Positions 39,153 to 55,833 of a DNA stretch of 64,000 bases are shown here, in pieces (position 1 is the first letter of the stretch; every line of letters starts with the position of its first letter). The notes under the pieces were generated by a model that did no database searches, was not told where the DNA came from, and saw only the letters and a program-made list of their open reading frames with translations. Origin of the DNA: Candidatus Caldifonticola tengchongensis (lineage in GTDB: Bacteria > Sysuimicrobiota > Sysuimicrobiia > Sysuimicrobiales > Sysuimicrobiaceae); NCBI GenBank assembly GCA_031432545.1, contig JAVKGX010000003.1, forward strand, positions 57,861 through 121,860, written 5' to 3'. Both the position numbers and the translations under genes were made by a program.

Positions 39153-40235
39153 GTGCGCGCGGCGGTATGTCTGATCCTGAGCGTTGTGGCCCTGGCGGTG
39201 CCGGCGGCCGCGCAGTCCGCCGAGGACCGCGCGGAGATCGAACAGGGCCGCCGCGCGGCGCAGCAGATCGAGCGGCAGCTCAAGGTCGTCACCGACCCGG
39301 AGGTCAACGAGCGGGTGACGCGCATCGGCCGTGCGATCGCAGCCGTAACGGAGCGCCCGGACCTACCGTGGACGTTCAGGGTTGTCGAGCACAGGGTCCC
39401 CAATGCGGTCGCGCTGCCCGGCGGCTACATCTACCTGACCTCGGCGATCGTCCGCATCCTGCGCACCGACCACGAACTGGCCGGCCTGCTGGCGCACGAG
39501 GCCGCGCACGTGGCGCTGCGTCACCATCGTCGGATGGAGCGCGAGGCGCTGCGCACCAATCTCATCGTCATGCTGGTGGCGGTGCTGGTGCGCGACGCCA
39601 ACGTCGCCGCCGGCGCGCAGCTGCTCGGGGGCGGACTGCTGAGCGCCTTCACACGGGAGATGGAGCGCGAGGCCGACCGGGCCGCGGTGGGATACGTGCT
39701 CCAAACCGAATGGCACCCCGTGGGTGTCCTTACGTTGCTCGAACGCATGGCGTGGGAGGACCTGCTGACCGCCAACGTCGACCCCGGCGCCTTCCGCACG
39801 CATCCGACGTGGGCCGAGCGCCTGCGGGCCGTGGAGAACGAGCTGCACCGGCGCGGCGTGCCGATCCACCGCCGGATCTCGATGGGGTTCCTGCGGATCG
39901 ACGTCGCCGAGGAAGAGCTGCGGGGAGCTGCCGTGGGGGTGATCCGCGTCAATGGGGAGGTCGTGATGCGGCTGAGCGGCGGCCGGGCGCGGGCGGATCA
40001 GGTGGCCCGGCGGCTCGACCACGTGTTCAACGAGGACCCCTCGCCGTTCGACGTGCGCGCCGTGGGCGTGATGGACGAGTGGACGGTGCGCATCGGCGAC
40101 GAGCGCGTCCTGACGGTCACCGGGGACGACGTCCGCCTGCTCGGCCGCTCCGCCCGGGATCTGGCCAACGACTACGCGCAGCGCCTGCGTCAGGCGATCG
40201 CCGAGGACCGGCGGCGCAGGGCCCTCGGCGGTTAG
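39153..40235 (+). CDS. M48-family zinc metallopeptidase (secreted)
   Basis: GTG 39153 in frame within track ORF 38568-40235; signal peptide CLILSVVALAVPAAA; HEAAH zinc motif. Start is uncertain. The overlapping 39041-40330 ORF in another frame (Arg/Gly-rich) is judged an artefact. Confidence 0.65.
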   Translation: MRAAVCLILSVVALAVPAAAQSAEDRAEIEQGRRAAQQIERQLKVVTDPEVNERVTRIGRAIAAVTERPDLPWTFRVVEHRVPNAVALPGGYIYLTSAIVRILRTDHELAGLLAHEAAHVALRHHRRMEREALRTNLIVMLVAVLVRDANVAAGAQLLGGGLLSAFTREMEREADRAAVGYVLQTEWHPVGVLTLLERMAWEDLLTANVDPGAFRTHPTWAERLRAVENELHRRGVPIHRRISMGFLRIDVAEEELRGAAVGVIRVNGEVVMRLSGGRARADQVARRLDHVFNEDPSPFDVRAVGVMDEWTVRIGDERVLTVTGDDVRLLGRSARDLANDYAQRLRQAIAEDRRRRALGG

Positions 40236-40322
40236 GCCGCGTCCTGCCGCACCAAACGCACCGCATGAGCAGCCGGCGGTGGAAGACCTTGGGCCGGACA
40301 CCGTTCCCCAACACCGCGGTTC

Positions 40323-40331
40323 TGCTATGAT
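40323..40331 (+). promoter_or_regulatory. extended -10 promoter element TGcTATGAT for the tRNA
   Basis: tTGcTATGAT at 40323-40331, 12 nt before the mature tRNA 5' end. Confidence 0.4.
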
Positions 40332-40343
40332 GAGGTGTTGGAC

Positions 40344-40419
<76 letters not shown>

Positions 40420-40499
40420 GCCCTTCCACGTTGCGTCGTCTTCCGACCCCTCCGGATCGGTGCCCAGTTGCGACAACGGTGGGACCCGCTCCCGGCGCG

Positions 40500-41714
40500 T
40501 CACCGCGCCTGGTCGCGAGGCGCCAGCCAGCCGACCAGCGCCGCCGTCGCGATCAGGCTCGCCGCGATCAGAAAGACCGGCCGCGGTCCCATCGCCTCCG
40601 CGACGACGCCCGCCAGCAGCGGCGCGACGACGCCTCGCACCCCGAGCAGTGACGCGTACGCCCCAGTGTACTGGCTGACCCTGTCGGCGGGGGCGAGCTC
40701 CATCACCGCTGCCATCCACGCCAGGTCCATCGCGGCGATGACGAACCCGTCGGTGGCGAACGGCAGCAGCGCGTACCAAGTGGACGGAGCCAGGTAGAAG
40801 AGCAGGGGCGTCAAGATCCCTACGGCGAACACGATGCGAATCGCGGCCAGACCTGAGTGCCTGTCGATGAAGCGCCCCCACACGAAGAACGACAGGACCG
40901 AGCACGCCGACATCACCGCCGACAACACCCCCACTTGGCTGTTCGTCGCGCCCAGCTCGTCCACCAGCAGCAGCGGGACCGCCGGTGCCATCATCCATCC
41001 CCCGAAGCCGAAGACCGACGTCGTCACCAGCAACGCCCGAAACCGGGAGTCGGCGAGCGCCACGCGCCATGCTTCGTGCACGGAGGGCCGTTCGTTGGAC
41101 CGCGGCTGACCGGGTAGGTGGATGCGGCCGAAGACGAGCGCGCTCGCGATGCCGAAGACGGCGGCGACGGGGAACACCGCTGGGTAGCCAAAGCGCTGGA
41201 GGGCGGAGCCTGCGACGAGCGCGGCGAGAATCGATGCCAGGCTCAGCCCGACGCGCACCAGACCCAGCAACCTGCCGCGGTGCTCCCGCGGGAACACCGA
41301 GCGGATGGCCGCGGTGTAGGCCGGCAGGATCGTGCCGTGCACCAGGTGAAAGGCGATCACCAGGGCCACGAAGGCGTGCGGCCCGGAGACCAGAGGCGCG
41401 AGCAAGAACAGGCCCCGCGCGACCACCGACGGCCACACGACGAACGGGACGGGGTTGCGCCCGGCGATGATCGCGCTCCACCAGGCCGCGAACAGCAGTC
41501 CGATCGCCGGCCCCGCGGTCAGCAGGGAGACCTGGAGGGGGGTCGCACCCAGGCGGCGCGCCGTGACGCTCAAGAAGGGCAGGACCATGCCGGCGAACAG
41601 GCCGAACAGAACCGCGCCGCCGAGGTCGTACAGGAACGCACGCCGGGCCGCGGGCGGGATCGCAGGTAGGAAGCGCACGGTTCTGTTTGTACGGGCTCCA
41701 CTAGCGATTGTCAA
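40500..41714 (-). CDS. MFS transporter
   Basis: 404 aa with 12 predicted TM segments. TTG start at 41712-41714. Divergent from the psuG cluster. Confidence 0.75.
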   Translation of the reverse strand: MTIASGARTNRTVRFLPAIPPAARRAFLYDLGGAVLFGLFAGMVLPFLSVTARRLGATPLQVSLLTAGPAIGLLFAAWWSAIIAGRNPVPFVVWPSVVARGLFLLAPLVSGPHAFVALVIAFHLVHGTILPAYTAAIRSVFPREHRGRLLGLVRVGLSLASILAALVAGSALQRFGYPAVFPVAAVFGIASALVFGRIHLPGQPRSNERPSVHEAWRVALADSRFRALLVTTSVFGFGGWMMAPAVPLLLVDELGATNSQVGVLSAVMSACSVLSFFVWGRFIDRHSGLAAIRIVFAVGILTPLLFYLAPSTWYALLPFATDGFVIAAMDLAWMAAVMELAPADRVSQYTGAYASLLGVRGVVAPLLAGVVAEAMGPRPVFLIAASLIATAALVGWLAPRDQAR

Positions 41715-41739
41715 AGTCGGGGACGGTCCTCACGGCCGG

Positions 41740-41748
41740 TGCTAGAAT
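41740..41748 (+). promoter_or_regulatory. extended -10 element TGcTAGAAT upstream of psuG
   Basis: 41740-41748; no good -35 at 17 nt. Prediction only. Confidence 0.3.
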
Positions 41749-41799
41749 GAAGGAGACCGCCGGCCGCCCGAGCCGGCGTTTTCGTGTGCGGGGGTCGAG

Positions 41800-42687
41800 G
41801 TGCGCATCCACGCGGAGGTGGCCAGCGCTCTGGCGGGCGGCGTTCCGGTCGTCGCGCTGGAGACGACATTGTTTGCACATGGGCTGCCGTCCTCGGTGGT
41901 TCACCGGGTGCAGCAGGACGTGGAGGCGGCCGTGCGCGAGGAGGGCGCGGTCCCCGCTGCGATCGCCGTCCTGGAGGGGGAGATACGGGTCGGTCTGGGG
42001 CCGGAGGACTGGAGAGCCGTCTTCGATCGGCCACTGGACAAGGCGGGTCTGCGTGACCTGCCGGGGGCGGTGGCCAAGAGACGGGATGCGGCCACCACTG
42101 TCGCGTCGACGGCGTACCTCGCGTCGCGCGCGGGCATCCGCGTCTTCGCGACCGGTGGCATCGGCGGGGTGCACCGGGATGCGAGCCGTACCTGGGACGT
42201 GTCCGGCGACCTCACCGTCCTGAGCAGGACGCCGGTCGTGGTCGTCTGCTCCGGCGCGAAGTCGGTACTGGATCTGCCAGCCACGCTCGAGGCGCTGGAG
42301 ACGCTGCAGGTCACGGTGCTGGGCTTCCGAGTGGACCGGTTCCCAGCGTTCTACGTGGCCGACAGCGGGCTGCCGGTTCCGCGCGTGGAAAGCGAAGCGG
42401 AAGTGGCTGCGATCGTGCGTGCCCGCGACGCGCTCGGCCTGGCGTCCGCGGTGGTCGTCGCACAGCCCCCTCCGCCGGGCGCCGCGCTCGATCCCGAGGT
42501 GCACGACGCAGCCCTCGCGGATGCACTGCGCGCGGCGGAGGGCGTGCGGGGCAAGGAGGTCACGCCCGTGCTCCTGCGACGCCTGGCCGAGGCGACCGGC
42601 GGTGCAGCGGTCGAAGCCAACCGGCACCTCGCCGTCGCCAACGCGCGCCTGGCGGCGCGGATCGCGAGGGCACTGGTCGGGCACTGA
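41800..42687 (+). CDS. psuG: pseudouridine-5'-phosphate glycosidase
   Basis: GTG 41800 with RBS gcggggg. IndA/PsuG family N-terminus (...EVASALAGGVPVVALETTLFAHGLP...); 295 aa. Confidence 0.85.
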   Translation: MRIHAEVASALAGGVPVVALETTLFAHGLPSSVVHRVQQDVEAAVREEGAVPAAIAVLEGEIRVGLGPEDWRAVFDRPLDKAGLRDLPGAVAKRRDAATTVASTAYLASRAGIRVFATGGIGGVHRDASRTWDVSGDLTVLSRTPVVVVCSGAKSVLDLPATLEALETLQVTVLGFRVDRFPAFYVADSGLPVPRVESEAEVAAIVRARDALGLASAVVVAQPPPPGAALDPEVHDAALADALRAAEGVRGKEVTPVLLRRLAEATGGAAVEANRHLAVANARLAARIARALVGH

Positions 42688-42744
42688 CGGCACGTGGCGA
42701 ACGGGCGGTCTTCGGCGCACACGTGCTGCCCTCGGAGGATTGCC

Positions 42745-43833
42745 ATGCGACGCCTTCTCATCGACAGCGGCGGTAGTTCGGACGACGTCCTGGCGCTGCT
42801 GATGGCGGCCAGGTCTTCGGAGGTGGAGATCGTCGCGGTCACGGCGATCGCCGGCTGCGTGCGGGTCGGGCAGGCTGCGGAGAACCTCCTGTACGGTCTG
42901 GAGGTGGCGGGTGCGAGCCGCGTGCCGGTCTACCTCGGCTGCGAGCGCCCGTTGCTGCGACCCCACACACCGTTCGAGCCGCTGCACGGCCGCAGCGGGA
43001 TGGGTGCCCACAACCACCCGCGGGCCAAGCAGCGGCCCGAATCGGCGCACGCGGTGGATGCGATCCTGTCTTTGTGTCGCCACTACCGCAAGGAGTTGGA
43101 CATCGTGTGCCTGGGGCCGCCGACGAACCTGGCGGCGGCCCTGATCCAGTCGCCCAAGCTCGCCGAGATGCCCGGTCGGGTCTACGTCTACGGTGGCTCG
43201 TCCGATGGGGGGAACGTCACGGCGTCGGCGGAGTTCAACTTCCACACCGATCCAGAAGCGGCGTCTTTGGTGCTCGATAGCGGGCTGCCGATCACGCTGG
43301 TGGGCTGGGACCAGGCGCGCCAGCACATGACGATGCGCGAGGGCGACATCCACCGGATCCGCCAGGGAACCACGCGGGAGTGCCGGCTGTTTATGGAATC
43401 GACGCGGACGTTCGCCGAGTACTGCCGGCGCACCCTGCGGATGCGTGGGTCGGCGCTGGGAGCGGTCCTCACGATGGCCGTGGCCCTCGACCCCGGTGTG
43501 GTCCGGGAGTCGGTGCGCGTCCGCGCGGACGTCGAGACGCGTGGGGAGATCACCCGCGGACAGGTCGTCTTCGACGCGGTGGGCCTGTCCCACCGCCCGG
43601 CCAACGTCCAACGGGTCTGCGACGCCGACGGCGAGCGCGCGCGAGAGATGCTCTTTTCGGCCCTCGGCGCGCCGCCGGTGACGGTCGAGCGGCCGCAGCA
43701 GGTGCCGGAGATGGGCGAGTCAGAGTCTCCTCCGCAGCCCCCGGCCGAGGCGGAAACACCCGATCGCACACCACAAGGCTCGGCCGAGCCGGTGCCGGTT
43801 CCCGATGCACCGTCCGACACGACACGGGATTAG
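42745..43833 (+). CDS. nucleoside hydrolase (IU-NH family) with degenerate N-terminal Asp cluster
   Basis: ATG 42745 with RBS ggaggattgcc. IUNH fold (LGPPTNLAAAL..., HTDPEAA). The DxDxxxDD calcium motif reads DSGGSSDD, i.e. the second Asp is replaced by Gly. Low-complexity Pro/Glu-rich C-terminal tail. Confidence 0.7.
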   Translation: MRRLLIDSGGSSDDVLALLMAARSSEVEIVAVTAIAGCVRVGQAAENLLYGLEVAGASRVPVYLGCERPLLRPHTPFEPLHGRSGMGAHNHPRAKQRPESAHAVDAILSLCRHYRKELDIVCLGPPTNLAAALIQSPKLAEMPGRVYVYGGSSDGGNVTASAEFNFHTDPEAASLVLDSGLPITLVGWDQARQHMTMREGDIHRIRQGTTRECRLFMESTRTFAEYCRRTLRMRGSALGAVLTMAVALDPGVVRESVRVRADVETRGEITRGQVVFDAVGLSHRPANVQRVCDADGERAREMLFSALGAPPVTVERPQQVPEMGESESPPQPPAEAETPDRTPQGSAEPVPVPDAPSDTTRD

Positions 43834-43836
43834 CCC

Positions 43837-44724
43837 GTGCTGCTGACCGCGGGCGACCTGGTCCTCGACGTCCTGGTCCGGTCGGACACCGGGCCGCATC
43901 CCGGCTCCGAAGGCGACGGACAGATCGTCCTCGCCCCCGGCGGATCGGCCGCGAACGTCGCCCGTTGGGCCGCCCATCTGGGTTTTCCGGCCCGGTTCGT
44001 CGGATCCGTCGGCGACGACTTCGCGGGTCGGTGGCTGACCGAGGCGATGCGGTCGTCGGGTGTGGACGTCCGCGTGGACGCTGTCGCCGGTGAGCCCACC
44101 GGCGTCGTCGCGGTCTGGGTGGACCCGTCCGGGGAGCGCACGATGGTGACCGACCGCACCGCCAACCGCTACCTCCCCCCGCGGCTGCTCGACGAGGACA
44201 CGTGGTCGGACGTGACGCACTTCCACTTCACCGGATATTCGTTGCTGGCATCCCAGACACGTGAGCGCATTCTCGCCGCGAAGGCCATTGCGGTCCGCCG
44301 CGGTTGCACGCTGTCGTTCGACCCGGGGCCGCATCGGCGCCTCGTCCAGCACGTCGGCGCCGCTGCAATCCTGGCGGCGTGCGATGGCGTCGATGTGCTT
44401 TTGCCCAACGAGGCGGAGGCAGTTGCGCTGGCGGCAGCGAAGAGTGTCGAGGAGGCGATCGATCGGCTGAGCGCGAGGAGTTCGATCGTGTGCATCAAGC
44501 GAGGCTCTGCTGGATGCCTGCTGGCCCGTGGCGCGCAGCGGCTTAGCATCGTGCCGCCGGGCCACACCGCCGTGGACACGACCGGTGCGGGGGATGCGTT
44601 CGCCGCCGGCTTTCTGGCGGTGTGGAAACGCGGCGCCTCCGTTCCGGAAGCGGCTGCCGCCGGCGTGCGCGCCGCAGCGCGAGCGGTGTCGCACGTCGGT
44701 GCCGGGCCGCAGGGATGGGCGTAG
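43837..44724 (+). CDS. PfkB-family carbohydrate/nucleoside kinase (pseudouridine kinase candidate)
   Basis: GTG 43837. PfkB signatures (GGSAANVA, DTTGAGDAFAAGFL). Adjacent to psuG as in the psuK-psuG arrangement. Confidence 0.75.
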   Translation: MLLTAGDLVLDVLVRSDTGPHPGSEGDGQIVLAPGGSAANVARWAAHLGFPARFVGSVGDDFAGRWLTEAMRSSGVDVRVDAVAGEPTGVVAVWVDPSGERTMVTDRTANRYLPPRLLDEDTWSDVTHFHFTGYSLLASQTRERILAAKAIAVRRGCTLSFDPGPHRRLVQHVGAAAILAACDGVDVLLPNEAEAVALAAAKSVEEAIDRLSARSSIVCIKRGSAGCLLARGAQRLSIVPPGHTAVDTTGAGDAFAAGFLAVWKRGASVPEAAAAGVRAAARAVSHVGAGPQGWA

Positions 44725-45414
44725 ATGGGCCTGCCGCTGATCCTCTCGCTGGTCTTCGGGGCGGGAGCCAACGCGGCCGCGAACCTGCGACGGGTTGCCG
44801 ACGGGCGCGTGTGGGTGGCGTTCGCCGTCGGCGGTGGGGTGTTCTTCGTCGTGCAGTTCGTCAGCCGTCCTCTGGTTGCGCTGGTCTCGATGTTGGGCGG
44901 CTGGCAGGCCGACGGGACGTTCCCGAGCTGGCTGTTCGTGGCCGTCAACGTCGTCTTGGCCGAGCTGTTCAAGTTGACGGCCGCCCTGGTCCTGCACTCG
45001 GCGTACCGATCGCCGGTCGGGGAAGCCTCCGGGACCGGGGCGGCCGTCGGAGCGGGTTTCGCAGTCTGGTACGAGTCGCTGATCCTGTCGTCGGCGTTCC
45101 AGATCTCGCGCCTGGCCCTGCCCGGCGGGCAGTCGCTGGTTGCCGCACTCGTGGCTTCGTTGGCCCGCGTGCTGGCCGGGTCGGCGACCACGGGGCTGGG
45201 TGCCGGGCTGGCGGTGCGCGGGCAGCTGGCTGGCGGCGTCGTGCTGGCGGTGGCGGCTCAGCTGCTGTTGGATCCCGGTCTTCGGGTGCTGCTGTGGCGC
45301 CCCTGGATGACCGTCGCCGCCACCGCCCTCGTGAGCGGCGTGCTGTTCGCGTGGCTGGTCGTGTGGGGCGGCGGGAGGACCCGGGCAGTGCCCCCCGGAT
45401 CGGACGGACCGTAG
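44725..45414 (+). CDS. hypothetical integral membrane protein
   Basis: ATG 44725 immediately after the kinase stop. 229 aa, 6-7 hydrophobic segments, no family recognised. Confidence 0.5.
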   Translation: MGLPLILSLVFGAGANAAANLRRVADGRVWVAFAVGGGVFFVVQFVSRPLVALVSMLGGWQADGTFPSWLFVAVNVVLAELFKLTAALVLHSAYRSPVGEASGTGAAVGAGFAVWYESLILSSAFQISRLALPGGQSLVAALVASLARVLAGSATTGLGAGLAVRGQLAGGVVLAVAAQLLLDPGLRVLLWRPWMTVAATALVSGVLFAWLVVWGGGRTRAVPPGSDGP

Positions 45415-45435
45415 CGGTCGAGGAGCGAAACGCCC

Positions 45436-45750
45436 ATGCCGGTAAATCCGAAGCTGCGCGACCGCAACACCGACCGGCTGTTCGAGGCCATCTTACAGCT
45501 GCGTTCCCTCGAGGAATGCTACCGCTTCTTCGAAGACCTCTGCACCGTCCACGAGCTGCACGCGTTGGCCCAGCGGTTTCACGTGGCCCGACTGCTGCAC
45601 GAGGGGGCGACCTACGAAGAGGTCGTGCGCAAGACAGGCGCGAGCTCGGCCACCGTCAGCCGCGTGAAGCGGTTTTTGGAGTACGGCGCGGACGGATACC
45701 GGCTCGTGCTGCGCCGGATGGGCGCTCGAAAACCCCGCCCCCGAAGTTGA
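45436..45750 (+). CDS. TrpR-like YerC/YecD family protein
   Basis: 104 aa. Family signature region (LFEAILQL...ECYRFFEDLCT..EL...QR..VA..L..G.TY.E......S.ATVSRVKR). Sits immediately upstream of the his operon. Confidence 0.7.
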   Translation: MPVNPKLRDRNTDRLFEAILQLRSLEECYRFFEDLCTVHELHALAQRFHVARLLHEGATYEEVVRKTGASSATVSRVKRFLEYGADGYRLVLRRMGARKPRPRS

Positions 45751-45792
45751 CACCGGCCCGCTCCTCGTGGTATCGTGAGCGCTACTTCCATT

Positions 45793-45808
45793 CTTTAGCG
45801 CGATAAAG
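45793..45808. promoter_or_regulatory. inverted repeat CTTTAgcgcgaTAAAG between the yerC-like gene and hisZ (candidate operator)
   Basis: Perfect 5-bp arms separated by 6 bp, in an unusually AT-rich 70-nt intergenic stretch 16 nt upstream of the hisZ ATG. Confidence 0.3.
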
Positions 45809-45823
45809 GACTAAATCACTGCG

Positions 45824-47044
45824 ATGCCGAGCCGCACGGCTCCCTTCCGAGGGCATCGGATCCCCGACGGCCTGCGCGACTGGCTCCCCGACGAGTGGGG
45901 GCGGGTGCGGGCACTGGAGGCGCGGCTTCGTGCGCTGTTCGGCGCATGGGGATACTGCGAGGTGGCTACGCCGGTGCTGGAATGTCTGGACAGCGTCGCG
46001 CGCGGGATCGGCCAGACGCCGCAAGACTGGTTCGTCGTCGTGGACCGCACCGGTGAACTTTTGGTGCTGCGCCCGGAGATGACCGTGCCGATGGCGCGCC
46101 TGGCCGCGGGCCACCTGACGGGGCGGACGGTGCGGCTGTGCTACTTCGCCGAGGTGTTTCGAGGCCGACGGGCGCGGGGCGCGGCCCGGGAGTTCCGTCA
46201 GGCAGGGGTGGAGCGGATCGGGGATCGGGGGTGCGAGGCCGACGGGGAGGTGATCGCGCTGGCCGCGCACGCGCTGCGGGAGGCCGGCGTGCGTGACTTC
46301 CGCATCGGCGTCGGGCACGTGGGGTTGTTGCGCGCGTTGTTGGAGGCGGCCGGTCTGGACGCCGGGGACCGGCACACGGCGCAGGTGCTGCTGTACCGCC
46401 GCGACTTCGTGACGCTGCGCGGGCTGCTGGCGGGCAGCCCCGCCCGGGTTCGCGATGTCATCTTTTCGCTGCCCGAGTTGCGGGGCGGGGACGCCTCTGC
46501 GGCCGTGCGTGACGTCGGGGTCGGGGCCGAGGCTGTGGCGGAAGTCGATGCGGTGCTGGCGACCCTGCCGGCCTTCGGAGTGGGGGATGCGGTGGAGATG
46601 GACCTGGGCTTGATCCGCGACTTCGACTACTACACGGGCGTCGTGTTCGAGGGATACACCCGGGGGCTTGGGTTGCCGCTGCTGGGCGGGGGCCGCTACG
46701 ACGAACTGCTGGGGCGCTTTGGGGCCGACCGCCCGGCCATGGGGTTCGCGATCGAACTCGAGCGCGTTCTGCCGGCTGCTGACGCGTTGGCCGAGCGGCG
46801 ACCTGCGCTGCAGATCGTCTACGAGCCGCAGGCGCGCGCCGCAGCGCTGGACGTGGCGCGGCGTGCGCGCGATGCCGGGTGGGCGGTGACGGTGGATCCG
46901 CACCCGGCGGAGCCGCTGGGAGGCGCGCCGACCCTGGCGTTCACGACGGCGGGCGTCCGTCTTTCCGATCCGGACGGTACCCAACGCGAGGTGCCGGGGG
47001 CCCACTGGCAGCAGATCCGCGGCCTGTTGGACGGTGCCCGGTGA
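45824..47044 (+). CDS. hisZ: ATP phosphoribosyltransferase regulatory subunit HisZ (HisRS paralog)
   Basis: 406 aa class-II aaRS-like core with no anticodon-binding domain. Followed by a short-form hisG. Confidence 0.85.
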   Translation: MPSRTAPFRGHRIPDGLRDWLPDEWGRVRALEARLRALFGAWGYCEVATPVLECLDSVARGIGQTPQDWFVVVDRTGELLVLRPEMTVPMARLAAGHLTGRTVRLCYFAEVFRGRRARGAAREFRQAGVERIGDRGCEADGEVIALAAHALREAGVRDFRIGVGHVGLLRALLEAAGLDAGDRHTAQVLLYRRDFVTLRGLLAGSPARVRDVIFSLPELRGGDASAAVRDVGVGAEAVAEVDAVLATLPAFGVGDAVEMDLGLIRDFDYYTGVVFEGYTRGLGLPLLGGGRYDELLGRFGADRPAMGFAIELERVLPAADALAERRPALQIVYEPQARAAALDVARRARDAGWAVTVDPHPAEPLGGAPTLAFTTAGVRLSDPDGTQREVPGAHWQQIRGLLDGAR

Positions 47045-47709
47045 AGAAGCTGACGGTGGCGGTCCCCGCCGGGCGCCTGCGCGCAGACGCGCTGCGCGCC
47101 CTCCGATCCGCAGGCTACGCGGGTGCGGCCGATCCCGACGACCGCAGCCTGTTGCTGCCGTGGGGTGAGTTGACGGTGCTGGTGGCGAAACCGGTCGATC
47201 TGCTGACGTACGTGGAACGCGGTGCGGCCGACTGCGGGATTGTCGGCAAGGACGTGCTCCTCGAGCAGTCGCACCACGTCTACGAGTTGCTCGACCTGGG
47301 CTTCGGGCGGTGCCGGGGCGTGGTGGCCGTCCCGCGCGGGCGAACCGCGCTCTGGGACGACGCGCGCCGGCCGCTGCGCATCGCCACGAAGTACCCGCGG
47401 GTCGCCGAGGGCTTCTTCCGGGAGCGCGGGCGCCCGGTCGAGATCGTCGAGATGTACGGGTCGGTCGAACTCGCCCCGCGCGTGGGGCTCAGCGACGGCA
47501 TCCTCGACGTGGTGATGACCGGCGCTACGTTGCGTGCCAACGACCTGGTGGAGGTGGCGCAGGCGTTCGTCTCCACCGCGCGCCTGGTCGTGAACCCCGT
47601 GAGCCTGCGCGCCCGGTCCGACGCAGTGCAGACCCTGTTGGACCGTTTGAGGGGTCGCAGCGGCGGTGCGGCCATCGCCTCGGCCTCGCAGGGGGAGGGA
47701 TCGGCGTGA
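47041..47709 (+). CDS. hisG: ATP phosphoribosyltransferase, short form
   Basis: GTG 47041 overlaps the hisZ stop (GTGA). 222 aa, (V)KKLTVAVPAGRL..., no C-terminal regulatory domain, consistent with HisZ dependence. Confidence 0.88.
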   Translation: MKKLTVAVPAGRLRADALRALRSAGYAGAADPDDRSLLLPWGELTVLVAKPVDLLTYVERGAADCGIVGKDVLLEQSHHVYELLDLGFGRCRGVVAVPRGRTALWDDARRPLRIATKYPRVAEGFFRERGRPVEIVEMYGSVELAPRVGLSDGILDVVMTGATLRANDLVEVAQAFVSTARLVVNPVSLRARSDAVQTLLDRLRGRSGGAAIASASQGEGSA

Positions 47710-49031
47710 GGGTCGTGCGCCTCCGTGACGTCCCGCCGGGCGACCTGCGCCGGTTGCTGGCGCGTTCCCGGGATCGGATCTTCGACCCCCAGACGCAGGA
47801 CGCAGTTCGCCGGCTGCTCGACGACGTGCGCGCGCGGGGCGACCAGGCCGTTGTGGACGCCACGGCCCGATTCGATGGGGTGCGGCTTCGGCCCGATGAA
47901 CTCGCCGTCTCCCGGCAGCAGATCCGTTCCGCGCACCGGCGGGTGGACGATGCGGTGCGGGCTGCTCTGGAGGCGGCGATCGAACGCAGCCGGCGGTTCT
48001 CCGAGTGGCTGCGGCCGCCGGAGACGGTCGTCGAGGAGATCGAGCCCGGCATCACCGTCGGCGTGCGCCACACGTCGATCGCATCGGTCGGCGCGTACGT
48101 CCCCTCCGGCAAGGGGAGGTTCCCCTCGACGGTTGCGACGATGCTCACGCCGGCCGTGGTGGCCGGCGTTCCGGACATCGCCCTCGTCGTCCCGCCAGGG
48201 CCAGACGGTTCGGTGGATCCCGCGGTGCTCCTCGCGGCGGACTTGCTGGGGATCGAGCGCGTGTTCTGCGCCAACGGCCCCGCGGGCATTGCCGCGCTCA
48301 GCGTGGGGACGGCGACCTTCCCGCGGGTGGAGGCGGTCGTGGGTCCGGGCAGTCCTCACGTCGTAGCGATGCAACTGACCATCTCGTCGTTGGGCGTGCG
48401 CGCGCTGGGACTGATGGGACCCACGGAATCCGTGGTGCTGGCCGACGGCCGGGCTCCGGTGGACCTCGTGGCGCTCGACTTGGTGAACGAAGCCGAGCAC
48501 GGCAGTGACTCGGCCTGTTGGCTCGTCACCCCCAGCGCCGCGCTGGCCGAGGAGGCGGTCGCACGTGTGAGGGACCTGCTGGACCGAATCCCCGAGCCGC
48601 GGCGTACCTACGCGCGCGATGCGCTGTCCGATCTGGGCGGGGCCCTCGTGGTCGATAGCTGGGAGGAAGCGGTGTCGTTCGTGGACGCCTACGCCCCCGA
48701 ACACCTCCTCATCCACGCCGCCGAGGCGTGGGAGACGGCGTGGCGCATCCGCCACGCGGGGGAGATTCTCATCGGACCACACACGCCGTTTTCGGCGGCG
48801 AACTACGCGATCGGCATACCGGCGGCGCTGCCCACGGGCGGGGCGGCACGCCGCGAGGGTGGCATTACGGTCCTCAGCTTCCTCAAGACCACGTCTGTGG
48901 GACATCTGGATCCGCGTGGCCTGGAGAAGGTGCGAGGCGTCGTGCAGGCGCTGGGTGCGTATGAGGGTTTCCCCGCGCACGTGATGGCGGTGACCGGTCG
49001 ACCCGTTGGGCCCTCGGGGCCCGGAGGGTAG
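47706..49031 (+). CDS. hisD: histidinol dehydrogenase
   Basis: GTG 47706 overlaps the hisG stop. HisD motifs (...GPSGPG at the C-terminus); 441 aa. Confidence 0.9.
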   Translation: MRVVRLRDVPPGDLRRLLARSRDRIFDPQTQDAVRRLLDDVRARGDQAVVDATARFDGVRLRPDELAVSRQQIRSAHRRVDDAVRAALEAAIERSRRFSEWLRPPETVVEEIEPGITVGVRHTSIASVGAYVPSGKGRFPSTVATMLTPAVVAGVPDIALVVPPGPDGSVDPAVLLAADLLGIERVFCANGPAGIAALSVGTATFPRVEAVVGPGSPHVVAMQLTISSLGVRALGLMGPTESVVLADGRAPVDLVALDLVNEAEHGSDSACWLVTPSAALAEEAVARVRDLLDRIPEPRRTYARDALSDLGGALVVDSWEEAVSFVDAYAPEHLLIHAAEAWETAWRIRHAGEILIGPHTPFSAANYAIGIPAALPTGGAARREGGITVLSFLKTTSVGHLDPRGLEKVRGVVQALGAYEGFPAHVMAVTGRPVGPSGPGG

Positions 49032-49037
49032 GGGGCC

Positions 49038-50117
49038 ATGCGGGTCCGACCCAGACCGGAGGTCGACGCGCTGCCGGGTTACCGGCTGACGGTGGTGCCC
49101 GCCCCGATCAAGTTGAACCAGAACGAATCCCCCTACGACCTTCCGCCCGAGGTCAAGGAAGAGGTGCTCGGAACGTTGCGGTCGGTGCCCTGGAACCGCT
49201 ATCCGCCGATGCGCGCCGGGCGACTGCGGGAAGCGATCGCCCGGTTACAGGGTGTAAAGCCTGAGAAGGTGATCCTCACCAACGGCTCCAACGAGGCGAT
49301 CCTCGCGCTGATCTCTGCCTTCGCCGCCGGCGGCACGGTCGTTCTGCCGGAGCCGGGCTACTCGATGGCCAGACCCCTGGCCGTGACCGCGGGCGCCCAC
49401 GCGGTGGCCGTTCGGCTGCGCGAAGACCTCAGCATGGATCCGGACGCGCTCCTTTCCGCCGCGGCCGCCTCCTGCGCATCGATGATCTTCTTCGCCTCCC
49501 CGAACAACCCGACGGGCCGCGCCGTACCCCCCGACGACGTGGAGCGCATCGTGGCGGGCTTTCGTGGCCTGGTGGTCGTCGACGAGGCATACTGGGGTTT
49601 CTCGGAAGGGACGGCGCTGCGGCTGCTGCCCGAGCGGGCGAACGTGGCGGTCGTGCGAACGGCGTCCAAGGCGTTCGGTCTTGCCGGCGTGCGAGTCGGC
49701 TGGGTCACCGCGTCGAGGGACGTGATCGCGGCGTTGGACAAAACCCTGCCACCGTACAACCTGGACGTCTTCGCCCAGGCCGCGGCGGAGGCGATGGTGC
49801 GCCGGCCGGATCTGGTGCGCGAGCGCGCATCGCAGGTCGTGCGGGAGCGCGAACGCGTCCTGGAGGCCCTGCGCGCGCTCGGGGTCGAAGCGTTCGCGAG
49901 CGAGGCGAACTTCATCCTGTTCCGCACGCCCGACGCGGCTGCGACGTTCGACGGCCTGGCGCGGCGCGGCGTGCTCGTGCGGGACGTCTCGCACTTCCCC
50001 ATGCTCGACGGCTGCCTGCGTGTGACTGTGGGGACGCCTCCCGACAACGACGCGTTCTTGCAGGCGCTGCGTCAGGCCCTGCCCCGGGTGCGGGCGTCCG
50101 GCGGGAGGTCTGTATGA
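49038..50117 (+). CDS. hisC: histidinol-phosphate aminotransferase
   Basis: 359 aa class-II aminotransferase. PLP lysine region (RTASKAFGLAG). Confidence 0.9.
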   Translation: MRVRPRPEVDALPGYRLTVVPAPIKLNQNESPYDLPPEVKEEVLGTLRSVPWNRYPPMRAGRLREAIARLQGVKPEKVILTNGSNEAILALISAFAAGGTVVLPEPGYSMARPLAVTAGAHAVAVRLREDLSMDPDALLSAAAASCASMIFFASPNNPTGRAVPPDDVERIVAGFRGLVVVDEAYWGFSEGTALRLLPERANVAVVRTASKAFGLAGVRVGWVTASRDVIAALDKTLPPYNLDVFAQAAAEAMVRRPDLVRERASQVVRERERVLEALRALGVEAFASEANFILFRTPDAAATFDGLARRGVLVRDVSHFPMLDGCLRVTVGTPPDNDAFLQALRQALPRVRASGGRSV

Positions 50118-50692
50118 GGTCTGCGACGGTCGCGCGCACCACGGCCGAGACCTCGGTCCGGGTGTCGCTGAACCTGGACGGCACCGGCCGGCACGATGTG
50201 CGGACCGGCATCGGCTTCTTCGACCACGTGCTGGCGCAGCTCGCCTGCCACGGCGGGTTCGACCTGACCGTTGTGGCGGAGGGCGATCTCGAGGTGGACG
50301 CCCACCACACCGTCGAGGACGTGGGCATCACGCTGGGCCAGGCCCTCTCTGAGGCGCTGTCCGACCGCAGCGGGATCGCCCGGTTCGCCAGCCTCCACGC
50401 CGCGATGGACGACGCGCTCGTGCTCTGCGCGGTGGACGCAGGCGGCCGGCCGTTTCTGGCGTGCGACCTGCGGTTCTCTCTGCCGGTGGTCGGTGCGTTT
50501 CCGACGGAACTCGTCGAGGAGTTCCTGCGGGCGTTCGTCACGCACGGACGCCTCACCGCCCACGTCAGACTCGTTGACGGCCACAACAGCCACCACATCG
50601 TCGAGGCCGTCTTCAAGGGGTTGGGTGTGGTTCTGCGCCGCGCGGTCGCGGTCGAGCGGCAGGGCGTGCCGTCCACGAAGGGTGTGCTGTGA
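50114..50692 (+). CDS. hisB: imidazoleglycerol-phosphate dehydratase (monofunctional, no HAD phosphatase domain)
   Basis: 192 aa with IGPD motifs (GIGFFDHVL, HHTVEDVGI, HH..E). ATGA overlap with hisC. Confidence 0.92.
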   Translation: MRSATVARTTAETSVRVSLNLDGTGRHDVRTGIGFFDHVLAQLACHGGFDLTVVAEGDLEVDAHHTVEDVGITLGQALSEALSDRSGIARFASLHAAMDDALVLCAVDAGGRPFLACDLRFSLPVVGAFPTELVEEFLRAFVTHGRLTAHVRLVDGHNSHHIVEAVFKGLGVVLRRAVAVERQGVPSTKGVL

Positions 50693-51315
50693 AGGACACA
50701 GCGTGCCGGGCCGCCGTCGTGGACTACGGCGCCGGCAATCTGCACAGCGTGGAGCGTGCTCTCGCCCGAGTGGGGTTCGCCGCCTGGCGGGCGGTGCGGC
50801 CGGAGGCGTTGGACGGCGCCGACGTGGTCGTGCTGCCGGGGGTGGGTGCGTTCGGTCCGGCGTCGCGTCGCCTGCGCGAGGAGGGGTTCTTCGAGGCGAT
50901 CCGCGCCGCGCTGCGCGAGGGGCGATGGCTCGTCGGGCTGTGCCTGGGGATGCAGATGCTGTTCGAGGAGAGTGAGGAGGACGGAACCCACGAGGGACTC
51001 GGACTGCTGGCGGGCCGGGTCGTGCGGCTGCCCGACGGGATGAAGGTGCCACACATGGGCTGGAACACGCTGACGGTCGCCCGCGGTTGCCCGTTCCCTC
51101 TGGGCGTGAGGTCCGGGGAGTACGTGTACTTCGTGCACTCCTTCTACGCCCGAGCCCGCGAGGAGGACACGGTCGCCTGGACCCCGTACGGGGTCCGCGT
51201 TCCGGCCATCGTCGCGGCAGGGAGGGTGTTGGGTTTTCAGTTCCACCCCGAAAAGAGCGGCGAGGTGGGCCTGCGCCTGCTGCGGGGCCTGGCCGGCGCG
51301 GTCGGGCGGTCATGA
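50689..51315 (+). CDS. hisH: imidazole glycerol phosphate synthase, glutamine amidotransferase subunit
   Basis: 208 aa class-I GATase (GLCLGMQ catalytic Cys; HPE). Confidence 0.9.
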
Positions 51316-52856
51316 CGGTCCTGCCCGCCGTCGACGTCCTCGGCGGGCGGGTCGTCCGGCTGCGCCGGGGCGATTTCGCGCAGGCCACGGTCTACGACTC
51401 TGATCCGGTACGGGCCGCGCGACGGTGGACGGCACGGGGTGCGCGGTGGCTGCACGTCGTGGATCTGGACGGCGCGCGCGTGGGCGCCCCAAGGCAGTTG
51501 GGGGTGCTGGCCGCGATCGCGAAGTCAGTCGGTGTCCCCGTGCAATTCGGGGGCGGCCTCCGGTCGGTCGAATCGGTCGGGCGTGCGCTCGATGCGGGAG
51601 CGGCGAGGGTCGTGATCGGCACGTCGGCGCTGACCGATCCCGCGACGCTGGCGTCGGTGTGCGACCGGTTCGGCGAGCGCGTCGCGGTCGGCCTGGACGT
51701 GGAGGACGGGATCGTCCGCATTCGCGGCTGGACCGAGAGTGCGAGTGTGCACCTCGAAGAGGCGGCCAGGCGTGTGCTGGCGGCGGGCGCGCGCAGGTTG
51801 GTCGTCACCGACGTGGTGGCGGACGGGACGATGGCCGGTCCGAACCTGGAGCTGTACCGACGCCTGGTGCCCCTGGGCGTGCCAGTCGTCGCGTCGGGGG
51901 GCGTCCGCGACGTCGACGACCTGCGGGCCCTGCGGGAGATCGGAGTGGAGGGCGCGATCGTCGGCCGGGCCCTGTACGAGGGGACCATCGACCTCCGGGA
52001 GGCCGTCGACGCGGTGCAAGGCGCACGGTCCGAGGAGTGCGGCTCCGCGCTCGCCCGGCGCATCATCGCCTGCCTGGATGTCTCGCCGGTGGGTGGACGG
52101 GCCCGCGTGGTCAAGGGCGTGCACTTCGTCCGGCTGCGCGACGCAGGCGACCCGGTCGAGCTCGCTTTTCTGTACGAGCGGGAAGGCGCGGACGAAATCG
52201 TGTTCTTGGACATCACCGCTTCATCGTCGGGTCGCCCGACGCTCGAGGACGTCGTCCGGCGGACGGCGTCGGAGGTGTTCATCCCCCTGACCGTGGGCGG
52301 GGGCGTCGGTTCGGTCGAAGACGTGCGGCGCTTGCTGCGGGCCGGGGCGGACAAGGTCGCGGTCAACACCGCGGCGGTGCATCGGCCCGAGCTGGTGTGT
52401 GAGGCGGCGGAGATGTTCGGATCGCAGTGCGTCGTCGTCGCGATCGACGCGCGGCGGCGGCGCGGAGGCTGGGAGGTCTGCACCCACGGGGGGCAGAAGC
52501 CCACGGGCCTGGACGCCGTGGCGTGGGCCCGGAGGGTGGCCGACCTGGGCGCCGGCGAGATCCTGCTGACCAGCATGGACCGCGACGGAACGACCGAGGG
52601 ATTCGACGTCGCGCTGACGCGCGCGGTGACCGACGCCGTCGGCATCCCGGTGATCGCATCGGGTGGGGCGGGAGACGTCTCGCACTTCGCGGAAGTCCTC
52701 GCCGAGGGCGGCGCGGACGCGGCGCTGGCCGCATCGGTCTTCCACTTCGGCCGTCTGCGCATCGGCGATCTGAAGGATGCGTTGCGGGCCGCCGGCGTGC
52801 CGGTGCGCCCGGCGTTGGGCGGTGCCGGCGGCCGGACACAAGCGATGGGACGGTGA
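51312..52856 (+). CDS. hisA-hisF: apparent HisA-HisF fusion: ProFAR isomerase domain followed in frame by the IGP synthase cyclase (HisF) domain
   Basis: ATG 51312 overlaps the hisH stop. The first ~235 aa carry HisA hallmarks ([33 protein letters not shown]). Without any stop codon the frame continues into HisF hallmarks ([21 protein letters not shown], ..VFLDITAS.., [16 protein letters not shown]). The junction at 52015-52050 was checked codon by codon. Confidence 0.8.
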
Positions 52857-52881
52857 CGCCCAGCGTGCGGATGTTCCCTCG

Positions 52882-53550
52882 ATGACCGACCGGGAGGATC
52901 CGCGGGTGGAGATCCCACAGGGTCGTGGCCCCGTCGCTTTCGACGACCTGGGGTTGGTGCCCGTCGTGGTCCAGGACCGCTGCACGGGCGCCGTCCTGAT
53001 GCTCGCCTACGCCGACGCCGCGGCGATCGCCCGAACGGAACGGACGGGTCTCGCCCACTTCTGGAGCCGCTCGCGCGGACGCCCCTGGCAGAAGGGCGAG
53101 ACGAGCGGCCACGTCCTGCGCGTGCACCGGATCTTGACCGACTGCGACGGCGATGCGGTGCTGTACGTCGTCGATCCCTCCGGCCCGGCGTGCCACACGG
53201 GAGAACGATCCTGTTTCCATCGAGACTTGTCCGGCGCGCGGGGCGTTGCGCCCGCGGCGGTGCTGGCGGATCTGGCGGCGCTCGTCGCCTCGCGGCGCGC
53301 ACACCCCGTGGAAGGCTCGTATACCGCCGCGCTGCTGTCCGACGTCCCGTCGCGCCTACACGCGAAGATCTACGAGGAAGCCGCCGAGGTCGTGCGTGCC
53401 GCGCGCGAGGAAGGGCCTCGTCGCCTGGCGGAGGAGGCGGCCGACCTCCTGTACCATCTGCTGGTGCTGCTCGCCCGGCATGACGTGGCGCTGTCCGATG
53501 TGCTGGACGTGCTGGAGCGCCGGCGAGGCGCAACGGGGGCCGAATCGTAG
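52882..53550 (+). CDS. hisIE: bifunctional phosphoribosyl-AMP cyclohydrolase / phosphoribosyl-ATP pyrophosphatase
   Basis: ATG 52882, in frame within track ORF 52777-53550. HisI region (GLVPVVVQD...CDGDAVLY..D....CH.GERSCF) then HisE region (E.....EE..E...A). Confidence 0.85.
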   Translation: MTDREDPRVEIPQGRGPVAFDDLGLVPVVVQDRCTGAVLMLAYADAAAIARTERTGLAHFWSRSRGRPWQKGETSGHVLRVHRILTDCDGDAVLYVVDPSGPACHTGERSCFHRDLSGARGVAPAAVLADLAALVASRRAHPVEGSYTAALLSDVPSRLHAKIYEEAAEVVRAAREEGPRRLAEEAADLLYHLLVLLARHDVALSDVLDVLERRRGATGAES

Positions 53551-53646
53551 GCCCCGCGCTCGACCCTGACCGCTGGCTCGCCACTTCGAACTTCGATACC
53601 ACGCGGACCCGCGGTGGATGCTTGCGCTATGCTGAGACATGCGGGG

Positions 53647-54378
53647 ATGCTGTACGCGATCCTGTCCGACGTGCACGCCAACCTCGACGCGCTCGAGGTC
53701 GTCCTCGCCGATGTGGCCGGCAGCGGGGCGGAGCAGGTGATCTGCCTGGGTGATTTCGTCGGGTACGGACCGGAGCCGAACGAGTGCACCGAGCGGTTGC
53801 GCTCCGTCGCGACCGTGGCGCTGGTGGGCAACCACGACCTGGCTGCCCTCGACCGACTGGACGCCGGCCGCTTCAACCTGTTTGCGCGTCTGGCGGTGGA
53901 GTGGACCAAGCTGCAGCTGGAAGAGTCGATCCGCCACTACCTGGAGTCGCTGCCCGCCACGCGGGAGTACGGAGGGCTGCTGCTCGTGCACGGGAGCCCG
54001 CGGGATCCCGTCGAAGAGTACATCATGGATCTGGAGACTGCAGACGACAATTTTCGGGCCGCGGATTTCGAAATCTGTTTTTTCGGCCACACACACTATC
54101 CCGTGTGGTTCGTGCACGACGGCGAGCGTACCCGCATGCGCGCCCTCGCGCCGGGCGAGCGTGCGGCGCTTCGCGGTGGGCAGCGCCATCTGATCAACGT
54201 CGGCAGCGTCGGCCAGCCCCGGGACGGCGATCCGCGCGCCGCCTACTGCCTGTTCGATTCGGACGCCCGGGTCGTGGAGCTCCGGCGATTGCCCTACCCG
54301 ATCGAGTCGGTGCAGCAGAAGATGCGCGACAGGGAACTGCCGCGGCCGCTGTGGGAGAGGCTGGCGGAGGGGCGGTAG
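53647..54378 (+). CDS. calcineurin-like metallophosphoesterase (YfcE/MJ0936-type)
   Basis: MLYAILSDVHAN...GDFVGYGPEP...GNHD...GHTH motif series. Start chosen at ATG 53647; GTG 53614 and ATG 53629 are in-frame alternatives. Confidence 0.75.
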   Translation: MLYAILSDVHANLDALEVVLADVAGSGAEQVICLGDFVGYGPEPNECTERLRSVATVALVGNHDLAALDRLDAGRFNLFARLAVEWTKLQLEESIRHYLESLPATREYGGLLLVHGSPRDPVEEYIMDLETADDNFRAADFEICFFGHTHYPVWFVHDGERTRMRALAPGERAALRGGQRHLINVGSVGQPRDGDPRAAYCLFDSDARVVELRRLPYPIESVQQKMRDRELPRPLWERLAEGR

Positions 54379-54442
54379 CGCAGAATCGCCCCTTCTCTCG
54401 GGCCGGAGCCTGAGGTCGGCAGCGGGGCGGGGGTGAGGGGGC

Positions 54443-55783
54443 ATGACCGTCGAGAAGCGCGAGGAACTGGTGGCGAAAGCGTTTGCGGCCGCCAAGGTCG
54501 CAGAGCAGATGCACCGCTTCTACCGCGGCAAGATCCAGATCCAGCCCAAGTGCGCGATCCGCGGCGTCGAGGACTTCGCGATCTGGTACACACCCGGCGT
54601 GGCCGAAGCCTGCCGGGCGATCGTCCGCGACCCGCTGGAAGTGTACGAGCAGACGAACAAGTGGAACACGGTCGCGATCGTGACCAACGGTACGCGCGTG
54701 CTCGGGTTGGGCAACATCGGGCCGGAGGCCGCGCTGCCCGTGATGGAGGGCAAGGCGCTGCTGTTCAAGTACCTGGGGGGTGTTGACGCGGTGCCGATCT
54801 GCCTGGATGCGCGCGATCCGGAGGAGATGATCCGGACCACCCGCCACCTGCAGCCGGCGTTCGGAGGGATCAACCTCGAGGACATCGAGCAGCCGGCCTG
54901 CTTTCACATCCTCGATCGCCTGCGGGAGGAAATGACGATCCCGGTCTTCCACGACGACCAGCAGGGGACCGCAACGGTGACGCTGGCGGGCCTACTGAAT
55001 GCCCTGCGGATCGTCGGCAAGCCCCTGGCCGACGTGCGGATCGCGATGGTCGGCGCCGGTGCGTCGAACATCGCGATCGCCCGCATCCTGATCGCCGCGG
55101 GAGCCGATCCGGGCAACATCGTCATGACCGACAGCCGCGGCATCCTCAACCGGCGCCGTACAGAGTTGCGCGATACGCACCGCCAGAAGTGGACCCTCTG
55201 CTTGGTCACCAATGCTGAAAACCTGAGCGGTGGTCCCGCCGAGGCGATGCGGGGGGCTGACGTCCTGATCGCGCTCAGTACGCCGGGACCTGACGTCATC
55301 AAGCCAGAGTGGGTACGAGAGATGGCGCCTGATCCGGTGGTGTTCGCGTGCGCGAACCCCGTGCCGGAGATCTGGCCCTGGGACGCAAAGGAAGCGGGCG
55401 CACGGATCGTCGCCACCGGACGCAGCGACTTCCCCAATCAGATCAACAACTCTCTGGGGTTTCCCGCCATCTTTCGCGGGGCGCTGGACGTTCGCGCGCG
55501 CACGATCACGGACGAGATGTGCGTCGCCGCGGCGCAGGCGCTCGCCGGCTATGCCCAGGAGCGGGGGCTGCACGAGGACTACATCGTCCCGTCGATGGTC
55601 GAGTGGGAGGTCTATCCGCTCGTTGCCGCTGCGGTGGGCGAGCGGGCGATCGCACAGGGCGTGGCGCGGCTGCGCCCTCCGCGCGAACAACTGGAGGCAA
55701 GCGCGCGAGAGATGATCCGCTCGGCGCGCGAGGGGACACGCCTGCTGATGGAGCACGGCTACATTCCGATCTTGAATCTGTAA
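54443..55783 (+). CDS. NAD(P)-dependent malic enzyme (short bacterial type)
   Basis: 446 aa with malic enzyme N- and NAD-binding domains (GKIQIQPK, VTNGTRVLGLGNIGP, MVGAGASNIA). Confidence 0.88.
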   Translation: MTVEKREELVAKAFAAAKVAEQMHRFYRGKIQIQPKCAIRGVEDFAIWYTPGVAEACRAIVRDPLEVYEQTNKWNTVAIVTNGTRVLGLGNIGPEAALPVMEGKALLFKYLGGVDAVPICLDARDPEEMIRTTRHLQPAFGGINLEDIEQPACFHILDRLREEMTIPVFHDDQQGTATVTLAGLLNALRIVGKPLADVRIAMVGAGASNIAIARILIAAGADPGNIVMTDSRGILNRRRTELRDTHRQKWTLCLVTNAENLSGGPAEAMRGADVLIALSTPGPDVIKPEWVREMAPDPVVFACANPVPEIWPWDAKEAGARIVATGRSDFPNQINNSLGFPAIFRGALDVRARTITDEMCVAAAQALAGYAQERGLHEDYIVPSMVEWEVYPLVAAAVGERAIAQGVARLRPPREQLEASAREMIRSAREGTRLLMEHGYIPILNL

Positions 55784-55833
55784 GCCGTCTGGCGGACGGA
55801 GGTTCGCTGCGCACATCATGGAGGTTGTTGCGA

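Follow-up and report, generated by a model that had tools for sequence, protein, structure and literature searches.

What controls the histidine biosynthesis genes carried on a 64,000-nucleotide (nt) stretch of the genome of Candidatus Caldifonticola tengchongensis (NCBI GenBank assembly GCA_031432545.1, contig JAVKGX010000003.1, positions 57,861 to 121,860 of the forward strand)? This whole stretch is referred to below as the window, with positions counted from its first letter. An earlier inspection of the letters, here called the sequence-only reading, had pointed to a small gene for a TrpR-fold protein of the YerC/YecD family immediately before hisZ and to an inverted repeat in the gap between the two genes, and had proposed that they form a histidine-responsive repressor and its operator. 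The present analysis supports this proposal and finds that the locus matches a published regulatory system, HisR (Ashniev et al. 2022, PMC9413887). Judged by sequence comparison, the 104-amino-acid (aa) protein is very probably a HisR-type repressor of the TrpR family, orthologous to B. subtilis YerC, and the palindrome before hisZ its operator. The argument turns on four features:

45436-45750, + strand: hisR, encoding the predicted 104-aa YerC/YecD-type TrpR-family repressor (PF01371, TIGR02531).
45747-45776, + strand: predicted his promoter, with the -35 element TTGACA at 45747-45752, an 18-nt spacer, TG at 45768-45769, and the -10 element TATCGT at 45771-45776.
45791-45810, no strand assigned: predicted HisR operator of 20 bp, ttcTTTAgcgcgaTAAAgga, recognised by consensus match, matrix score, and conservation before hisZ.
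45824-47044, + strand: hisZ, with which the his operon opens (TIGR00443, 285.7 bits, cutoff 271.65; PF13393).

The open reading frame (ORF) at 45436-45750 translates into MPVNPKLRDRNTDRLFEAILQLRSLEECYRFFEDLCTVHELHALAQRFHVARLLHEGATYEEVVRKTGASSATVSRVKRFLEYGADGYRLVLRRMGARKPRPRS. This protein matches the Pfam family PF01371 (Trp_repressor) with an E-value of 7.6e-29 and 100.1 bits against a cutoff of 27, and the NCBIfam model TIGR02531, 'YerC/YecD family TrpR-related protein', with 135.4 bits against a cutoff of 42.2. Together with the TIGR00443 match of the gene that begins 73 nt further on, these results bear out the view that a TrpR-fold YerC/YecD protein is encoded just before hisZ. Its nearest relatives in the PDB are 3FRW (E 2.9e-30), 3G1C (5e-29), and 3KOR (4.9e-28), and 3G1C is the structure of E. 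eligens HisR (PMC9413887). Among HisR proteins, the conserved helix-turn-helix residues are Ala-Thr-x-Ser-Arg in the second helix and a Tyr in place of Arg69 of TrpR (PMC9413887). The window protein has all of these recognition residues, namely Y60, A72, T73, S75, and R76, the last four lying within the second-helix stretch S71-A72-T73-V74-S75-R76; in the HisR alignment of 26 relatives, Y60, A72, T73, and R76 never vary and S75 hardly varies. The proposed histidine-sensing region of HisR comprises acidic residues of the long helix 2, five Glu and one Asp, for which the paper gives no positions (PMC9413887); in the window protein, E27, E33, D34, and E40 are invariant across the same alignment. 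An identical 104-aa protein is encoded on a contig of a public metagenome-assembled genome (MAG), GCA_031432495.1 / JAVKHG010000016.1, whose NCBI source title is 'Armatimonadota bacterium', and the locus is also present in the sequencing runs SRR27730017 and SRR27730049.

The gap between hisR and hisZ (45751-45823, 73 nt) contains the inverted repeat that the sequence-only reading had noticed, CTTTA-gcgcga-TAAAG (CTTTAgcgcgaTAAAG, 45793-45808). The repeat is perfect and is separated by 15 nt from the hisZ ATG at 45824, while the 20-bp site built around it stops 13 nt before the ATG. The gap had also been described as AT-rich for this genome, and it has a guanine-plus-cytosine (GC) content of 54.8% against 69.2% for the window, which places it in the lowest 0.6% of 73-nt segments; its final 41 nt, at 41.5% GC, fall in the lowest 0.04%. 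A repeat search with a minimum seed of 6 nt did not list the inverted repeat because its arms of 5 nt are shorter than the seed, and the repeat was confirmed by reading and by pattern search. Its core, TTTA-N6-TAAA, occurs once in the 64 kb, both strands included, and in none of 100 dinucleotide-preserving shuffles. Since a 16-mer pattern with two mismatches is expected about once per window and is thus uninformative, the exact core and a weight matrix were used. The matrix has 32 columns and was built from 18 sites of other genomes, with the window excluded; on it, the window site reaches 36.0 bits and the next unrelated position 1.4 bits, against an average of -45 for all positions. Nothing in the 64 kb scored above this 1.4 bits as an autoregulatory site before hisR, as a site before the nucleoside-catabolism cluster that precedes hisR, or as any other target.

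Comparison with the published HisR motif, which had been suggested as a check, shows that the core of the consensus cacTTTAnnnnnnTAAAgtg is fully present in the window site. In the form ttctttagcgcgataaagga, the window site resembles two entries of the published site list, catattagcgaactaaagga of B. subtilis hisZ and tagtttatcacgataaagga of B. endophyticus yuiF (PMC9413887 site list). The window therefore holds what marks a member of the HisR system, a 20-bp palindrome that matches the consensus upstream of histidine genes, and holds it once.

Conservation upstream of his genes in related genomes had likewise been named as a comparison that could support or overturn the proposal, and it proved extensive. 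A scan with the HisR alignment, taking one genome per GTDB species, gave 80 loci, in 34 of which hisR is followed on its own strand by a his gene. The exact TTTA-N6-TAAA lies between hisR and the his gene in 22 of these 34 and within 150 nt upstream of hisR in five, and six of the remaining seven carry a one-mismatch variant at the expected place; a core with at most one mismatch is thus found before the his gene or before hisR in 33 of the 34 loci. Outside the motif the flanks are unalignable, with a median ungapped identity of 0.275, and since the core stays where the flanks do not align, the conservation is specific to the motif and amounts to a phylogenetic footprint. In the 35 loci of at least 60% GC (194 kb), 19 cores were counted against 0.12 expected from shuffles (maximum 2), nearly all of them directly before hisZ. 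Both the linkage of hisR with his genes and the operator persist in relatives down to 56-60% HisR identity. The nearest loci (92-93% identity) belong to MAGs titled Armatimonadota and Candidatus Sysuimicrobiota, and further loci to genomes titled Bacillati bacterium ANGP1, Bacillota, Symbiobacteriaceae, Thermaerobacter, and others; Candidatus Sysuimicrobiota, which equals CSP1-3, is uncultivated and adjoins Armatimonadota in genome trees. In family match, recognition residues, motif, and conservation, the locus has the sequence features by which a HisR system is recognised.

Gene order around the site varies among these relatives. A HisR site lies ~40-70 nt upstream of hisR in L028, L044, L060, L065, L073, and L075, and four of these loci (L028, L044, L060, and L075) have a his gene, hisZ or hisC, after hisR, a layout in which hisR seems to lead an autoregulated operon. 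In the window's clade the site lies between hisR and hisZ, with no autoregulation evident. Several of the more distant relatives (L006, L009, L010, and L011) have an additional gene of ~165-190 aa between hisR and hisZ, whose product shows a signal-like N-terminus and the motif LDDRVYAvAr.LMCPVC and presumably resembles a CcmH/NrfF-type cytochrome c maturation protein; despite the insertion, the HisR site stands directly before hisZ, as an exact core in L009, L010, and L011 and as a one-mismatch variant in L006. Titles implausible for a high-GC, Firmicutes-like HisR context, such as 'Mycobacterium leprae isolate MAG73', 'Chitinophagales bacterium', and 'Patescibacteria group bacterium', occur among the MAGs of L016, L028, L046, and L082, which suggests mislabelled bins or contaminant contigs and calls for caution with the taxon labels.

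How the operator could act is suggested by the promoter next to it. The extended -10 element of the predicted his promoter reads TGgTATCGT, its -35 element overlaps the hisR stop codon, and it is the sole sigma-70-like match in 40000-56500 (10/12 with TG). The same layout, TTGAC followed by a spacer of 17-18 nt and TAnnnT, stands upstream of the site in 19 of the 19 loci anchored on the core, in 14 of them with the TG extension, and 17-29 nt separate the end of the -10 element from TTTA. Taking the start as ~7 nt past the -10 element, transcription would begin at ~45782-45785 and the operator would span about +8 to +27, a region that RNA polymerase covers in the open complex. Because the operator would then lie within the polymerase footprint, promoter occlusion or blocked escape is the likely mechanism. 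In the proposed scheme, plentiful L-histidine would let a HisR dimer, with histidine as its co-repressor, bind the site at 45791-45810 and block initiation or promoter escape, so that hisZGDCBH(AF)(IE) would be off; when histidine falls, HisR would release the site and the his operon would be transcribed.

Histidine enters this scheme by homology. In fluorescence polarisation assays, the purified HisR of R. gnavus bound its site when 0.75 mM L-histidine was present but failed to do so when it was omitted (PMC9413887). The sequence-only reading had spoken of a TrpR-like family 'proposed' as a histidine repressor; the proposal is indeed published, and the wording understated the case, given this partial validation in vitro. 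An alternative accepts a HisR-family regulator at the site and assigns it another ligand than free histidine, or the role of an activator and not a repressor. Paralogues of HisR have seemingly switched to tyrosine/tyramine or histidine-utilisation genes (PMC9413887), and ligand specificity is not readable from the sequence. However, the target here is the biosynthetic his operon, which is canonical for HisR, the tested orthologue uses histidine as its co-repressor, and the location of the site downstream of the conserved -35 and -10 elements in all 19 anchored loci is that of a repressor. We therefore regard this alternative as unlikely.

Several points do weigh against the assignment of a histidine-responsive HisR and its operator. 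The case for the window protein is built from its sequence and its host is an uncultivated MAG, histidine as the presumed ligand leans on one distant orthologue, and the transcription start is a predicted position. The matrix scan spans 64 kb of the genome. Within the site, the 20-mer departs from the consensus at its outer positions (ttc...gga against cac...gtg), and the half-site-like elements that flank it in the window are imperfect, CTTCC agreeing at 3/5 positions and TAAAT at 4/5.

The genes upstream of hisR raise a separate question, that of whether hisR belongs with them or with the his operon. They are as follows:

41758-41778: terminator-like hairpin before the nucleoside cluster.
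41800-42687, + strand: Indigoidine_A/psuG-like gene (Pfam).
42694-43833, + strand: nucleoside hydrolase (inosine-uridine) (Pfam).
43837-44724, + strand: PfkB kinase (Pfam).
44725-45414, + strand: 229-aa hydrophobic membrane protein, with no Pfam or NCBIfam match.

The gaps in this cluster, counted through to hisR, are 0-21 nt, with 21 nt between the membrane-protein gene and hisR. Because of these short gaps, because no promoter for hisR was found in 40000-45436, and because a hairpin precedes the cluster, hisR is probably co-transcribed with the nucleoside genes, and HisR would then probably be made constitutively, from the last gene of the cluster. No terminator-like element was found between hisR and hisZ, so bound HisR might also act as a roadblock to read-through from the nucleoside cluster. 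The sequence-only reading had held that its proposal would fail if the gene were co-transcribed with, and functionally tied to, these upstream genes. This corresponds to an alternative in which the YerC-like gene serves the nucleoside/pseudouridine cluster or has some other role, and the palindrome is read by a different factor. The 21-nt gap and the lack of a detectable hisR promoter favour it, as does the fact that the three closest relatives (L003-L005) also have the nucleoside hydrolase upstream of hisR. The co-transcription part of that objection thus probably holds, but the linkage is confined to these three loci and is lost beyond L005, whereas the adjacency of hisR with his genes is wider and persists together with the motif. 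Moreover, the matrix finds no site in or before the cluster, which therefore appears to lie outside the HisR regulon, and the motif before hisZ is the one published for the HisR family (PMC9413887). Co-transcription accounts for the expression of hisR, not for what hisR regulates, and we consider a role tied to the nucleoside genes very unlikely. For the 229-aa membrane protein, a role as an uncharacterised transporter of nucleosides or pseudouridine is conceivable; among the loci, only L003 has a segment with 57% identity to it.

The inverted repeat could also be imagined to act in RNA, as a hairpin in the 5' leader that affects translation or stability, or as part of a T-box or attenuator, and not as a DNA operator. 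With a start near 45783 the repeat would be transcribed, and the probable Shine-Dalgarno sequence AAGGA (45806-45810) overlaps its right arm. However, the predicted hairpin has a folding energy of -3.9 kcal/mol and a z-score of +0.88, with 158 of 200 shuffles folding at least as well, no Rfam match was obtained at E up to 1 in 45300-46100, and a leader of ~40 nt is too short for a T-box, with no His-codon run in the 73-nt gap. The arms are fixed as CTTTA/TAAAG across relatives with no compensatory changes, and fixed arms without covariation argue for recognition of DNA by a protein and not for selection on pairing. An RNA element in place of the operator is thus highly improbable. The more specific identification of the element as a T-box or His leader was rejected, there being no Rfam match and no His-codon-rich leader peptide. 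Chance as the origin of the palindrome in this AT-rich intergenic stretch, which its 5-nt arms and the once-per-window expectation of a two-mismatch 16-mer might suggest, is effectively refuted by the conservation data, the exact core being absent from the shuffles and far in excess of expectation in high-GC loci.

The predicted HisR operator may extend beyond its 20-bp centre. In E. coli, TrpR dimers bind the trp operator in tandem, and the half-site-like elements on either side of the HisR site suggest that further HisR dimers may do likewise at the flanking elements of a longer array:

45785-45816, no strand assigned: extended half-site array CTTCC-att-CTTTA-gcgcga-TAAAG-gac-TAAAT, recognised from a cross-genome offset profile, with outer elements at 45785-45789 and 45812-45816.

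For the profile, 19 sites were anchored on the core and each offset was scored for matches to CTTTA or TAAAG, the background match being 1.03/5 with a standard deviation of 0.25. CTTTA stands out at offset -9 (mean 3.47/5, z 10.0) and at offset -17 (mean 2.68/5, z 6.8), and TAAAG at offset +18 (mean 3.21/5, z 8.9); relative to the core half-sites, the peaks are displaced outwards by exactly 8 and 16 bp. Because the outer half-sites of the window are imperfect, the case for tandem binding rests mainly on this cross-genome profile. The lower-GC loci, a second set, show the +18 signal less strongly (2.69), and in some of them repeats are clear, for example TGTTA-tca-TGTTA-tca-CTTTA. The +18 element is not simply a ribosome-binding site, because the hisZ start lies more than 60 nt further on in several loci. 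An 'ATAAA' right after the 20-mer is also present in the published footprint alignments of Clostridia and of Eubacterium/Acetobacterium (PMC9413887 supplement), and a spacing of 8 bp is known for TrpR half-sites (PMC9413887). The main text of the survey (Ashniev et al. 2022, PMC9413887) is silent on tandem HisR sites and on where the site lies relative to the promoter, whereas its supplementary alignments show both.

A broader proposal, plausible enough to pursue although we stand slightly on the doubtful side of it, is that the HisR operator is an array of four or five half-sites phased by 8 bp, CTTTA-like at -17, -9, and -1 and TAAAG-like at +10 and +18, which reaches from the transcription start to the ribosome-binding site, that HisR dimers occupy it cooperatively in tandem as a general and undescribed property of the family, and that the HisR regulon extends to MAGs labelled Armatimonadota and Sysuimicrobiota. 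In a genome of ~70% GC, an AT-rich operator stands far above the background, which makes its architecture (the post-start position and the 8-bp phasing) unusually plain. The half-site architecture turns tandem HisR binding into a hypothesis that can be tested on the cultivable Firmicutes already studied.

The presumed target of HisR is a complete his operon, from hisZ through hisIE, that begins 73 nt past hisR. Following hisZ, its genes are:

47041-47709, + strand: hisG (Pfam/NCBIfam).
47706-49031, + strand: hisD (Pfam/NCBIfam).
49038-50117, + strand: hisC (Pfam/NCBIfam).
50114-50692, + strand: hisB (Pfam/NCBIfam).
50689-51315, + strand: hisH (Pfam/NCBIfam).
51312-52856, + strand: hisA-hisF as a single ORF of 514 aa (Pfam/NCBIfam, translation).
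Ending at 53550, + strand: hisIE (Pfam/NCBIfam, public contig gene calls).

The genes overlap or abut, which is consistent with a single transcription unit, and with the HisR assignment this operon gains a specific predicted promoter, operator, and effector. Within it, the hisA-hisF ORF runs uninterrupted from a HisA barrel through a linker of ~10 residues into a HisF N-terminus. In two independent Logan assemblies the junction is read through without a stop over at least 422 residues, and many two-domain hisA-hisF relatives of ~490-500 aa exist (45-57% identity, 97% coverage). No record of the exact 514-aa product was found on exact look-up, and an end-to-end hisA-hisF fusion is absent from the list in a 2007 review of his gene fusions.

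Set beside known systems, the locus is closest to HisR as published. HisR, the orthologue of B. subtilis YerC, was described from 395 Firmicutes genomes and 97 genomes of Actinobacteria, Proteobacteria, Synergistetes, Dictyoglomi, Elusimicrobia, and Mollicutes, and in Peptococcaceae, many Negativicutes, and other groups the his operon directly follows hisR (PMC9413887). A literature search found no HisR experiments newer than that survey. The window shares with published HisR the PF01371/TIGR02531 family, the TTTA-N6-TAAA core, the hisZG... target, and the order of hisR before the his genes. It differs in its host, an uncultivated MAG of ~69% GC, the paper naming neither Armatimonadota nor Sysuimicrobiota, and also in having no autoregulatory site in the window and in that hisR follows a nucleoside-catabolism cluster.

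E. coli TrpR has the same fold and Pfam family as HisR, and is likewise a small dimeric repressor that is co-repressed by an amino acid and acts on a 20-bp palindrome at the promoter; the phased half-sites of the window resemble its tandem arrangement. However, the TrpR operator is TGTAcTnGTnnACnAgTACA and its targets are trp/aro genes, whereas HisR recognises cacTTTAnnnnnnTAAAgtg and targets his genes, and of nine tryptophan-contacting residues of TrpR two are conserved in HisR (PMC9413887). TrpR in the strict sense was rejected as an identity for the window protein, which is not a TrpR orthologue, since its site is of the TTTA-N6-TAAA type before hisZ and not TGTAcTnGTnnACnAgTACA with trp/aro genes. 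Histidine T-boxes and leader-peptide attenuators share with HisR the feedback control of his operons and a place before hisZ or hisG, but they are RNA-based with leaders of at least 100 nt, in contrast to the short leader of the window with neither Rfam match nor His-codon run.

Since regulator, motif, and co-repressor were all known from the literature, the finding is unsurprising in itself. Its new elements are modest: a host lineage that the survey did not include, a hisR without autoregulation that is appended to a nucleoside cluster, a conserved operator position after the predicted transcription start, and outer half-sites phased by 8 bp. A protein labelled merely 'YerC/YecD family TrpR-related protein' can be named HisR, and the range of HisR is thereby extended to poorly known, uncultivated lineages of high GC content.

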